Positions 344-63,991 of a DNA stretch of 64,000 bases are shown in pieces. The notes beneath the pieces were generated by a model. It did no database searches and had not been told where the DNA came from. It saw only the letters and a program-made list of their open reading frames with translations. The position numbers and the translations under genes were made by a program. The stretch's first letter is position 1, and each line of letters opens with the position of its first letter. The stretch lies in sequence record NC_004928.1; one strand, 5' to 3'. This stretch comes from Escherichia phage RB69.

Positions 344-1915
344 ATGAAATTTAATATCTTAAGTTTGTTTGCTCCATGGGCAAAAATGGACGAACGTGAT
401 TACAAAGACCAAGAAAAAGAAAATTTAGAATCGATCACCTCACCAAAATTAGACGACGGCGCTAAAGAATACGAAGTATCTGAAAATGAAGCACAGCAAA
501 CATATAATGCTATGTTTCAGAGAATGTTCGGTAGCCAAGAACCAGGGCTCAAATCAACGCGTGAATTAATCGATACGTATCGAAATTTGATGACGAACTA
601 TGAAGTGGATAATGCAGTCTCTGAAATAGTTTCCGATGCTATCGTATATGAAGATGATACAGAAGTCGTTTCTATAAATTTAGACAACACAAAATTTAGT
701 CCAAATATCAAATCAATGATGTTGGATGAATTTAACGAAGTGTTAAATCATTTATCTTTCCAACGTAAAGGTTCAGATCATTTTAGACGTTGGTATGTGG
801 ATTCTCGAATTTTCTTCCATAAAATTATTGACCCTAAACGCCCTAAAGAAGGTATTAAAGAGCTTCGTCGTTTAGACCCACGTCAAGTTCAATATGTCCG
901 TGAAGTTATTACAACCACTGAAGCCGGTGTTAAAATAGTCAAGGGTTATAAAGAATATTTCATTTATGACACATCACACGAATCTTATGCTTGTGATGGT
1001 CGCATATATGAAGCTGGCACAAAAATAAAAATCCCTAAAGCCGCGATTGTTTATGCCCATTCTGGTTTAGTTGATTGTTGTGGTAAAAATATCATTGGTT
1101 ATTTGCATCGGGCTATTAAGCCGGCGAACCAATTAAAACTTCTTGAAGATGCCGTCGTAATTTATCGTATTACTCGTGCTCCTGATCGTCGTGTATGGTA
1201 TGTTGATACAGGTAATATGCCTTCAAGAAAAGCAGCAGAACATATGCAACATGTTATGAATACGATGAAAAACCGTATTGCATATGATGCTACCACAGGC
1301 AAGATTAAAAACCAACAGCATATTATGTCGATGACCGAAGATTATTGGTTACAACGACGTGATGGTAAAGCAGTAACAGAAGTTGATACATTACCAGGTG
1401 CAGATAATACTGGAAATATGGAAGATGTACGTTGGTTCCGTAATGCGCTTTATATGGCTTTACGTATTCCTATTACCCGTATTCCAAGTGACCAAGGTGG
1501 TATACAGTTTGATGCTGGTACTTCTATTACACGAGATGAATTGTCATTTGGTAAATTTATTCGTGAGCTGCAACATAAATTTGAAGAGATATTCCTAGAC
1601 CCGCTTAAAACTAATTTAATTCTTAAAGGAATTATTACAGAAGATGAGTGGAACGATGAAATAAATAATATTAAGATAAAATTTCATCGGGATAGTTATT
1701 TCTCGGAATTAAAGGATGCTGAGATTCTGGAGCGTCGAATTAATATGCTTCAGATGGCCGAACCATTTATTGGTAAATATATTTCTCACAGAACAGCTAT
1801 GAAAGATATTCTTCAGATGTCTGACGAGGAAATTGAACAAGAGGCTAAGCAAATTGAAGAAGAGTCGAAAGAGGCTCGTTTCCAAGACCCCGACCAAGAA
1901 CAAGAGGATTTTTAA
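344..1915 (+). CDS. 20: portal vertex protein gp20
   Basis: Track ORF 332..1915; near-identical to recalled T4 gp20; ATG at 344 (MKFNIL) follows GGAG at 334-337, track start at 332 is TTG. Confidence 0.95.
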
Positions 1916-2576: not shown

Positions 2577-3217
2577 TGAATAAACCCGAGTTACTTATTG
2601 AAACTTGGGGTCAACCCGGTGAGATTATTGATGGCGTTCCAATGTTGGAATCTCATGATGGAAAAGATTCTGGCTTAAAACCAGGGCTTTATATAGAAGG
2701 TATTTTTCTTCAGGCAGAGGTTGTTAACCGAAATAAACGTTTATATCCTAAACGCGTTTTGGAAAAAGCAGTAAGTGACTATATTAAAGAACAAGTCGCA
2801 ACCAAACAAGCCCTTGGAGAATTAAACCATCCACCTCGCGCAAATGTTGACCCTATGCAAGCCGCTATCATTATTGAAGATATGTGGTGGAAAGGAAACG
2901 ATGTATATGGACGCGCTAGAATTATTGAAGGCGACCATGGTCCCGGCGATAAATTAGCTGCTAATATACGAGCTGGTTGGATTCCAGGTGTTTCCTCTCG
3001 TGGTCTTGGTTCTTTAACCGACACCAATAAAGGGTACCGTATCGTGAACGAAGGATTTAAATTAACCGTCGGCGTAGATGCCGTATGGGGACCTTCTGCT
3101 CCAGATGCTTGGGTTACTCCTAAACAAATATCAGAATCAGAAAATTCGGTGGAAATCACCAAAAACAGTGCTGACGAAGCATTTAAAGCTCTCGCAGAGA
3201 GTTTAAAAGCATTATAA
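2576..3217 (+). CDS. 21: prohead core protease gp21
   Basis: 213 aa ORF; T4 gp21 similarity and gene order. Confidence 0.92.
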   Translation: MNKPELLIETWGQPGEIIDGVPMLESHDGKDSGLKPGLYIEGIFLQAEVVNRNKRLYPKRVLEKAVSDYIKEQVATKQALGELNHPPRANVDPMQAAIIIEDMWWKGNDVYGRARIIEGDHGPGDKLAANIRAGWIPGVSSRGLGSLTDTNKGYRIVNEGFKLTVGVDAVWGPSAPDAWVTPKQISESENSVEITKNSADEAFKALAESLKAL

Positions 3218-61822: not shown

Positions 61823-61905
61823 AAGTACCTCAATACAATTGAAAATATTATACAAATCATAGGGATACTAAGCAACCATATTCCGATCCACATTTTAGAG
61901 CTCAT
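61819..61905 (-). CDS. tiny hydrophobic peptide (28 aa)
   Basis: ATGA overlap with stop of the 87-aa ORF upstream. Confidence 0.3.
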   Translation of the reverse strand: MSSKMWIGIWLLSIPMICIIFSIVLRYL

Positions 61906-62165
61906 ATCTCAACTTCCGCGAGTTCCATATATCCTTTGTTGATAACCTCTTTAAGGTCTTTAGAAAGAATAACACTAAAATGGTCGTTCATATGTCCATT
62001 AACTAAACGAGTTATTTCGGCTTCAGATGACATATAAGGCACGTCTGAGTCCCAATGAGATAGACCTAAATGGGTATAAATCATCCCTTCGTCGTCTGCA
62101 GTGTTGTACATTGAAACAAATTCGCCTGTTACTTTATGTTTTGCGTAGAAAAATTTAAATTTCAT
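61902..62165 (-). CDS. hypothetical protein
   Basis: 87 aa ORF. Confidence 0.5.
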   Translation of the reverse strand: MKFKFFYAKHKVTGEFVSMYNTADDEGMIYTHLGLSHWDSDVPYMSSEAEITRLVNGHMNDHFSVILSKDLKEVINKGYMELAEVEI

Positions 62166-62190
62166 GATGTTATCCTCTTTTAGATAGGAC

Positions 62191-62221
62191 TACTATATCA
62201 TAGTCCTACTTAGTTGTAAAC
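62191..62221 (-). promoter_or_regulatory. early promoter-like element (GTTTACA -35) with dyad symmetry
   Basis: taggacta/tagtccta inverted repeat around AT-rich -10. Confidence 0.35.
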
Positions 62222-62233
62222 ACTTTTATGAAA

Positions 62234-62791
62234 TTAAAGATGAAGATACCACCCGTTGTAGTTGCTCTTGCGGACGATTTTCTTTAGGTCTTCATGGTCT
62301 CCCACGAACTTTATAGAATAAGAGAAGACGTCAGGTGAGGTTTCTTTGACATCTAATATAATAATGCAATCTGCGACTCGATGGTTCAAGAAGGGCCCTA
62401 TATTGATTCCATTACCACCAGGATAATCACCCCTGTATCCTGTGGTAACCGAAATCCATTTACAATCTATCTGGTGCGTTTTGACTTCGACACGCAACCC
62501 GCAGTATTTAGGATGAGCTAACACGTCCCATGCATACGTGTACGGGTCTTCTACGTCTTCATTACCTTTATTAACATATCCGTCTAGCCAATTTGCTACT
62601 ACATACTCTGCAAAGACTGCAACCTTACAACGTCGAACAACGTCTTCTTTTATTTGACCTGGATCTTGTTTCAACGAGTACCGAGCAGTATCAGCGATCT
62701 TAACCTTCATTTCGCTAGTCAAAAACTCATTCGACAGGATAAATGTCGGAAGACTCTTCAGCCTCAACAGTCCCAAGTTCGTCTTTACCAT
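62234..62791 (-). CDS. denB: probable endonuclease IV (DenB) by size and position
   Basis: Track ORF to 62854; Met at 62791 gives 185 aa, the T4 DenB length; adjacent to rIIB. Confidence 0.45.
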   Translation of the reverse strand: MVKTNLGLLRLKSLPTFILSNEFLTSEMKVKIADTARYSLKQDPGQIKEDVVRRCKVAVFAEYVVANWLDGYVNKGNEDVEDPYTYAWDVLAHPKYCGLRVEVKTHQIDCKWISVTTGYRGDYPGGNGINIGPFLNHRVADCIIILDVKETSPDVFSYSIKFVGDHEDLKKIVRKSNYNGWYLHL

Positions 62792-63014
62792 AGATACCTC
62801 TGATGTGTAGTTCACCAAAATAAATGCGGTCACCTTCTTCAAGATATTCTGCATCTACAGGCGGAATTTCAATAACAACTTCGTCGCATTCTAACCAGCC
62901 GTAGTGTGCATCGCCAGGATGTTTTACCAATTTAGCACAATAAACTGATTTACACTTATGATGACCACGAAGATTAGCAATTTTGGATTCTGATACGTCA
63001 AATGGATGAATCAT
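62727..63014 (-). CDS. hypothetical protein (denB.1-like)
   Basis: 95 aa ORF overlapping the proposed denB start. Confidence 0.4.
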   Translation of the reverse strand: MIHPFDVSESKIANLRGHHKCKSVYCAKLVKHPGDAHYGWLECDEVVIEIPPVDAEYLEEGDRIYFGELHIRGIYGKDELGTVEAEESSDIYPVE

Positions 63015-63021
63015 AATTACC

Positions 63022-63051
63022 CCTAAAGAAAAAAGGGGACCGAAGTCCCCA
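63022..63051 (-). terminator. terminator downstream of rIIB
   Basis: ggggac-cgaa-gtcccc followed by T-run on minus strand. Confidence 0.65.
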
Positions 63052-63055
63052 ATTA

Positions 63056-63991
63056 TTATTCTGCAAATAATTCAGTAACGTCTGAAATTACTTCATAACG
63101 ACAAGTACGGGTCGTAGCATCGCCATAGTCAACTGGGATGGATACAACATCACGTGGATGAACTTTAACCTTAACAACTTTATCTGAGCTAGAACCAAAG
63201 TAACGAATATATGATTTAGCGCAAACATGTAGACCACGGGAGCAGGTTTGTGTATCATCATCGTTAACACGAGTACGAGGCATTGAAACAACTTTACCAG
63301 GCGAGTTATCAAATGTGCCACTATAGCAATCTAAATAGTCTTTACGAACTACTTTCCACGCATAGAAATGTCCGTCTTCAGTGATTTCAATATCGTTTGC
63401 AACCAAGAAGTCGAATAAACGTTGTACAGCTTTTTCGCTTGGGTTTTCTAACAGGTTTTCAAGGAACGGCAGATAGAATTTAAAGTCTTCGCCTTTTTCC
63501 ATAGAATCAATAATACGATTAACCAGTCCTGAACGAATTTCTATACCTTGATAAAATAAACTACCACCTTCAATAGTAACATTACCGTCAACAAACTTAG
63601 TAATAGCTTTCTTGATGTTAATAAGTTCGACAGCTTTACTAAGGTTTCCTGCGACCAAATTAGCTTTAATTTCTTCAAAATTTGCATGACTTGATGGGGT
63701 CGCATTGTATGCTACGCGTCCTTCAATGATTGAAATAAATTTAGATGATGCGTTCCATACGATTTCTGGACGATGACCTGTAATAATAGGTTCATTATTT
63801 TCTGGGACCTGTTCTTCGTCTTCAAATTCAGCTGCTTTCTCTTCAGCTTTAAAATTCTTAACAATCTTACGAAGAGTATCTGTTGAAATGTCGAAGTAAT
63901 CGGCAATTTCTTTACGAGTCCATTTGCCTGATTCAACCAGGCCGTAAGCTTCTAACTGTTCTTCTTGGGACAAGCATTTAATATTGTACAT
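63056..63991 (-). CDS. rIIB: rIIB protein
   Basis: 311 aa; MYNIKCL start and conserved C-terminal half as recalled for T4 rIIB. Confidence 0.93.
   Translation of the reverse strand: MYNIKCLSQEEQLEAYGLVESGKWTRKEIADYFDISTDTLRKIVKNFKAEEKAAEFEDEEQVPENNEPIITGHRPEIVWNASSKFISIIEGRVAYNATPSSHANFEEIKANLVAGNLSKAVELINIKKAITKFVDGNVTIEGGSLFYQGIEIRSGLVNRIIDSMEKGEDFKFYLPFLENLLENPSEKAVQRLFDFLVANDIEITEDGHFYAWKVVRKDYLDCYSGTFDNSPGKVVSMPRTRVNDDDTQTCSRGLHVCAKSYIRYFGSSSDKVVKVKVHPRDVVSIPVDYGDATTRTCRYEVISDVTELFAE

Follow-up and report, generated by a model that had tools for sequence, protein, structure and literature searches.

The window analysed here is a stretch of 64,000 nt from Escherichia phage RB69 (sequence record NC_004928.1). 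Its rIIB region carries, in order, rIIB, a hairpin, ORF95, denB and then the ndd-region open reading frames (ORFs), and the same order is found in PhAPEC2 and T4. denB lies downstream of rIIB and upstream of ndd, which is the position that characterizes the DenB family. The original prediction described a 65-nt overlap, in a different frame, between a 185-aa denB starting at position 62791 and a 95-aa ORF upstream of it (63014..62727). We re-derived the coordinates and the arithmetic of this overlap from the ORFs and the sequence, and both were correct (Table 1). denB is read in the +1 frame relative to ORF95, and its open frame (62854..62234) contains in-frame ATG codons at 62854 (206 aa), 62791 (185 aa) and 62710 (158 aa). 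At the upstream end of the overlap, the SD and the ATG of denB are written in the ORF95 codons Ile-Arg-Gly-Ile-Tyr-Gly (atc AGA GGt atc tAT Ggt); at the other end, the TGA stop of ORF95 is made from the denB codons Asn21-Glu22 (aaT GAg). It had been proposed that either one of the two starts was wrong or the overlap was genuine. Because the overlap is set by the stop of ORF95 and not by its start, only the start of denB could be wrong.

Table 1. Features of the rIIB-denB junction in the RB69 window (positions are those of the 64,000-nt window).
Feature	Position	Strand	Basis or remark
rIIB (311 aa), upstream context gene	63056..63991	-	ORF; annotated as rIIB lysis inhibitor in the 98-99% identical PhAPEC2 and ST2
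GC-rich UUCG-loop hairpin and T-run, terminator-like, between rIIB and ORF95	63035..63050	-	GGGGACTTCGGTCCCC then TTTTTTCTTT
ORF95 SD, AGGGG	63024..63020	-	Sequence
ORF95, DUF7418-family gene (RB69ORF272c / RB32ORF268c homologue)	62727..63014	-	ATG start, 95 aa
Rejected denB start, ATG (206 aa)	62852..62854	-	Without SD; not conserved
denB SD, AGAGG	62797..62801	-	5 nt upstream of ATG 62791; inside the ORF95 Ile-Arg-Gly codons
denB (endonuclease IV), 185 aa from ATG 62791	62234..62791	-	T4 DenB alignment, PHROG 1360
Dual-coding overlap, 65 nt	62727..62791	-	denB codons 1-21 plus 2 nt; ORF95 codons 75-95 plus stop
ORF95 stop, TGA	62729..62727	-	Sequence
Rejected denB start, ATG (158 aa, internal Met28)	62708..62710	-	Weak SD; not conserved

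A 1-kb query over the region matched 154 phage records at 93-99% identity and, where the taxonomy was inspected, these belonged to Mosigvirus, the RB69 group of T4-like phages. The record of ST2 (OM982647.1), a 171-kb T4-like sequence that is 99% identical to the window, bears the taxonomy Guernseyvirinae; Kagunavirus and looks mislabelled. The equivalent of the hairpin between rIIB and ORF95 is labelled as a putative terminator in the records of PhAPEC2 and ATK48. The loop of this hairpin is a C(UUCG)G tetraloop, and near-identical copies (GGGCTTCGGCCC or GGGACTTCGGTCCC) occur at gene boundaries in many genera. Such copies stand upstream of the DUF7418 gene or of denB in T4, RB32, Cronus, Ac42, Pm5461 and Acj9; in T4 and RB32, one of them follows denB.1 directly and stands a short distance upstream of where the DUF7418 gene starts. 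On the other side of denB, a strong sigma-70-like promoter sequence (62192..62220, minus strand; TTTACA, 17 nt, TG-TATAGT; 10/12 matches) sits in the 68 nt that separate denB from the following ORF (62165..61902, 87 aa, a homologue of RB69ORF270c). Its -10 half overlaps an inverted repeat, TAGGACTA...TAGTCCTA (62185..62208), and as a whole it looks like a typical early promoter of the T4 type.

Amino acid sequence comparison by BLASTP aligned the 185-aa product with T4 DenB (NP_049887) over 185/185 residues without gaps, at 71% identity (E = 1e-104). PHROG 1360, ‘DenB-like DNA endonuclease IV’, matched residues 1-184 (E = 8e-88), and a PDB sequence search with DenB gave no match. Trp88 and Ser176, which are functionally important for the activity or the specificity of T4 DenB (PMC2175332), are identical and carry the same numbers in the window protein (YAW88DV and RKS176NY in the gapless alignment). 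An endonuclease activity specific for dC in single-strand DNA is known for the T4 enzyme only (PMC1635256). Judged from these matches, the product of the window denB is a member of the endonuclease IV family, and its enzyme activity is predicted.

The start of denB differs among public records. A 185-aa form is annotated in PhAPEC2, ST2, Shf125875, ESh27, RB32 and T4, a 158-aa form in phiC120 and ATK48 (both of the same genus as RB69), JS98 and LHE83, a 146-aa form in Moon, and a 206-aa form in HX01, whose record also omits an intact DUF7418 gene. The question of the overlap reflects a real annotation inconsistency among these records. In the alignment with T4 DenB, which had been suggested as a check on the overlap, Met22 of the 206-aa long ORF (that is, ATG 62791) fell on Met1 of the T4 protein, with no gap in the 185 residues that followed; the N-terminus of the window protein from this position is (M)VKTNLGLLR. 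The T4 185-aa ORF expressed from the conserved ATG yields active enzyme in vitro (PMC1635256). The anti-SD duplex energy was -7.1 kcal/mol at 62791, compared with +0.4 at 62854 and -2.2 at 62710 (local background: mean -1.9, 1st percentile -7.3 kcal/mol), and an SD-like element with dG <= -4.9 was present at the aligned denB start in 18 of the 20 phages tabulated.

Initiation at ATG 62854 would lengthen the overlap to 128 nt. This codon is the first ATG of the open denB frame and is the start used in the HX01 record, but it has no SD, it is missing in the 99%-identical ST2, and the 21 extra residues, from which peptides of the longer form would come (MQNILKKVTAFILVNYTSEVS), have no counterpart in any homologue. 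Furthermore, an in-frame TAA immediately precedes the conserved denB ATG in T4 and RB32, so that a longer form of DenB is impossible in those phages. We consider the 206-aa start extremely unlikely. Initiation at ATG 62710 (Met28) would instead abolish the overlap, and codons 1-27 would then be conserved only as the tail of the upstream gene. Such a start would agree with the 158-aa records listed above and would avoid an unusually long overlap; against it stand the weak anti-SD pairing at this position and the numbering of T4 DenB (Trp88 and Ser176; PMC2175332), which fits the 185-aa form. Codon 28 is Met in only 5/20 phages and is a different codon in the remaining 15. A further comparison is offered by Cronus (Erwinia), Pm5461 (Proteus) and Ac42, Acj9 and AM101 (Acinetobacter), in which rIIB and denB are not separated by any ORF. 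The aligned ATG of Cronus, Pm5461 and AM101 comes straight after the rIIB hairpin, behind a GAGG-type SD; the setting is the same in Acj9 and Ac42, where the denB ATG is displaced by one to three codons from the aligned position. All five phages keep, in the denB frame, the first ~27 residues of DenB (motif TNPG(L/W)xRL...(D)LT/S.E..K(I/V)), and the conservation of these residues therefore cannot be the shadow of the tail of an upstream gene. The 158-aa start is thus very unlikely, and we conclude with high confidence that the 185-aa start at 62791 is the correct denB start and that neither start is wrong. As regards the two possibilities raised by the original prediction, the homologue alignment shows the 185-aa start to be conserved and supports no downstream start, which speaks for a genuine overlap and not for a misplaced start.

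ORF95 matched the Pfam family DUF7418 (PF24193) with 126.6 bits against a cutoff of 27, its residues 1-94 corresponding to profile positions 1-99 of 101; the Pfam gathering threshold was thus exceeded over the whole domain. ORF95 also matched PHROG 2237, and tblastn detected homologues in 683 phage records, comprising phages of Escherichia, Klebsiella, Enterobacter, Serratia, Yersinia, Salmonella and Citrobacter. In the core of ORF95 that lies outside the overlap, third codon positions account for 10 of the 13 variable sites among 11 Mosigvirus sequences, and nine variable codons are purely synonymous versus three with an amino acid change. These features argue that ORF95 is a real gene. T4 denB.1 (64 aa), which the original prediction had named for comparison, proved not to be its counterpart: BLASTP of ORF95 against T4 DenB.1 (NP_049888) gave no alignment at E <= 100. 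Moreover, RB32, JS98 and Marfa-like phages carry a denB.1-like gene and a DUF7418 gene side by side. By sequence similarity, the counterpart of ORF95 is RB69ORF272c / RB32ORF268c, of the Pfam family DUF7418. A literature search for ‘DUF7418’ found no paper. Residues 75-95 of ORF95 form an acidic tail, GKDELGTVEAEESSDIYPVE, which is encoded inside denB and contains 7 acidic residues and 1 basic residue in 20; a peptide that would reveal this tail is DELGTVEAEESSDIYPVE.

The distribution of the overlap was followed in a panel of annotated GenBank phage records, because an IMG/VR scan for DenB relatives had given only 3 loci. Wherever a full-length DUF7418 gene adjoined denB (17/17 phages examined), it contained no stop before the denB ATG, and the two genes overlapped by 53-80 nt. 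The overlap was 65 nt in Mosigvirus, 68 nt in RB32, KaAlpha, phi1_146043, SEA1, Moon, JS98, LHE83 and RZH, 53 nt in Marfa and Clarke, and 77-80 nt in phiR1-RT and X20. An identical 65-nt overlap is already annotated in PhAPEC2 (RefSeq, 98% identical), ST2, Shf125875 and ESh27; the arrangement is thus already known from RefSeq records of the same genus. The DUF7418 stop in the relatives is usually a TGA composed of the end of a T-ending denB codon and the beginning of the conserved Asp/Glu codon of the ‘DLT’ motif. The SD and ATG of denB lie inside the conserved DUF7418 motif HIRGIYG in Mosigvirus, Karamvirus and Moonvirus, and inside KKESLN in Tequatrovirus. Outside the HIRGIYG group, the amino acids differ (KKESLN, IGGDY, EEGEY), yet the purine-rich SD remains, and this conservation of the SD argues for independent initiation of denB inside the upstream coding sequence. 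Since the same arrangement was found, and is often annotated, in many related phages, we hold with high confidence that the overlap is genuine, widespread in T4-like phages and ordinary, if unusually long.

Variants of the DUF7418 gene were observed in several phages. Serratia phage PS2 (locus 1095..1361) carries what amounts to a natural ‘uncoupled’ version, a homologue split from denB by two small ORFs; it matches ORF95 only in residues 2-74, which is exactly the part outside the overlap, and ends in a short unrelated tail, with no long acidic tail. T4 (NC_000866.4, locus 3094..3207, minus strand) contains an unannotated 37-codon ORF, MIYMNIGDSDIKESLNAENESWVTETISDSDIYPIEQ, between denB.1 and denB, with the start and RBS of the original gene and a 68-nt overlap with denB. 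This ORF is a remnant of the DUF7418 gene, intact in RB32, that arose by an in-frame internal deletion; about 213-216 nt were lost, and the deletion relative to RB32 is bounded by short AAAG(G)AAA repeats. A similar in-frame remnant is present in HY03; that of the Tequatrovirus 303Ecol101PP is out of frame, with its stop upstream of the denB start.

Taken together, we consider it highly probable from the sequence comparisons that two real genes have 65 nt in common, each reading them in its own frame, and that denB initiates independently at 62791. Ribosomes would start at ATG 62791 by means of the AGAGG located inside the ORF95 coding sequence. Ribosomes that translate ORF95 would read 21 more codons beyond this point, through the first 22 denB codons, to the TGA of Asn21-Glu22; by reading on, they would provide the small protein with its acidic tail, and we infer that this tail is made.

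A different role for the overlap would be that of a translational-coupling device, by which denB, encoding a toxic nuclease, is translated only when ORF95 ribosomes open its RBS. Expression of DenB is lethal in E. coli (PMC1635256), the arrangement is conserved across many genera, and the short in-frame remnants of T4 and HY03 still read across the denB start, all of which would suit such a device. However, the RNA around the denB start folded with an MFE of -21.7 kcal/mol versus a shuffle mean of -23.7 kcal/mol (z = +0.70), which is no structure beyond that of the shuffles, and masking of the denB RBS by a hairpin was dropped as a candidate on this ground. A 5-bp terminator-like hairpin near the end of the overlap (62748..62732) is not conserved in T4 and was treated as chance. 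The stop of ORF95 lies 65 nt past the denB start, a distance too great for ordinary termination-reinitiation, which is implausible here for that reason. Neither of the sequence features expected of obligatory coupling, a masked RBS or a start close to the upstream stop, was found at the junction. In addition, five phage genera without the upstream ORF keep the SD and ATG (with the ATG one to three codons off in Acj9 and Ac42), and the remnant of 303Ecol101PP is out of frame and stops before denB begins. From these genera and from this remnant, we infer that denB expression probably does not depend on upstream translation, which would at most modulate it. Ribosome traffic across the denB site may have such a modulating effect, and we regard obligatory coupling as unlikely.

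The frame relation also brings to mind a +1 ribosomal frameshift in the overlap that would fuse the DUF7418 protein to DenB, since denB is in the +1 frame relative to ORF95 and this frame is open from 62854. The probability of such a fusion is close to negligible. The sequence showed no known +1 shift signal, the TAA that immediately precedes the ATG closes the denB frame of T4 and RB32, denB is equipped with a conserved SD and ATG of its own, and the phages that lack the upstream gene manage without a fusion.

In simulations in which the DenB protein was kept fixed and synonymous codons were drawn from the codon usage of the window, 9.8% of the runs left the second frame open over 65 nt or more (median, 14 nt). 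Judged from this phage alone, the open frame therefore exceeds the chance expectation somewhat but not strikingly. Among 12 phages with the overlap arrangement, a second frame open as long as observed occurred in 4-49% of the simulations, and the combined nominal p was 0.0024 with the overlapping gene versus 0.39 in six phages without it, values that ignore shared ancestry and are suggestive only. In 11 Mosigvirus sequences, denB third positions were variable at 2/21 sites in the overlap versus 58/164 elsewhere (Fisher p = 0.024), although constraints on the initiation region, rather than dual coding, can also lower the synonymous variation of codons close to a start. Of the four substitutions in the Mosigvirus overlap, three leave DenB unaltered and make conservative replacements in the tail (T/A/I), and the fourth leaves the tail unaltered and replaces a DenB residue (S13N). 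Over long distances, the frequency of an identical codon given an identical amino acid was 0.53 in the overlap versus 0.47, with controls at 0.41 versus 0.42; as this effect is small, no strong selection on the tail is claimed. Overall, selection on the tail has modest statistical support, which shared ancestry inflates.

A physically real overlap may carry a tail that is simply a neutral by-product of a missing stop, with no selected function, and we rate the chance of this at just short of even. The PS2 homologue, which is not adjacent to denB and has only a short unrelated tail, is in line with neutrality, as are the wide differences among the tails of different genera (except where ‘PTF’ in DenB imposes ‘DIYP’) and the Mosigvirus substitutions that alter the tail while remaining silent in DenB. 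However, every phage with the arrangement has a frame that stays open beyond expectation, synonymous variation of denB is reduced in the overlap, and the tails are consistently acidic. Weighing these patterns, we conclude that the overlap is real and probably under some double constraint. A stronger version, in which the DUF7418-denB junction is a co-evolved unit and no mere accident of close gene packing, with an acidic tail overprinted on the N-terminal codons of DenB and kept open by selection (through stop avoidance and reduced synonymous change) and with ribosome passage over the denB RBS tuning DenB synthesis, appears unlikely to us; if it held, the small protein might act on DenB itself.

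The main value of these results lies in annotation, because the comparative evidence favours the 185-aa start, and hence the overlap, over starts giving 158, 206 or 146 aa. They also correct the assumption that the ORF upstream of denB is T4 denB.1. DenB is reported to be a phage nuclease that triggers the retron Eco2 defence; in view of this current interest, a correct N-terminus would matter for the expression of DenB homologues. In other respects, the junction is an ordinary overlap, if an unusually long one, in a phage genome whose genes are densely packed.

Within 50 kb of PhAPEC2, we counted 23 overlapping same-strand gene pairs; the denB pair, with 65 nt, is a clear outlier, and the other 22 overlap by 1-23 nt. 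Other same-strand overlaps of T4-like phages include gp33/dsbA (23 nt) and many of the ATGA type (1-4 nt). The ORF95/denB overlap resembles them in that packed early genes are involved and the downstream start is located inside the upstream coding sequence, but it is nearly three times as long as the next longest, and its upstream stop is far from the downstream start. T4 denB shares with the window gene its length of 185 aa, its start position and its place downstream of rIIB. In T4, however, the annotated gene upstream of denB is denB.1, which is unrelated to ORF95 and ends 82 nt before denB, so that T4 has no annotated overlap. By contrast, the pairs formed by RB69ORF272c/RB32ORF268c and denB in other T4-like phages show the same frame relation and a similar overlap, and differ from the window only in sequence details.
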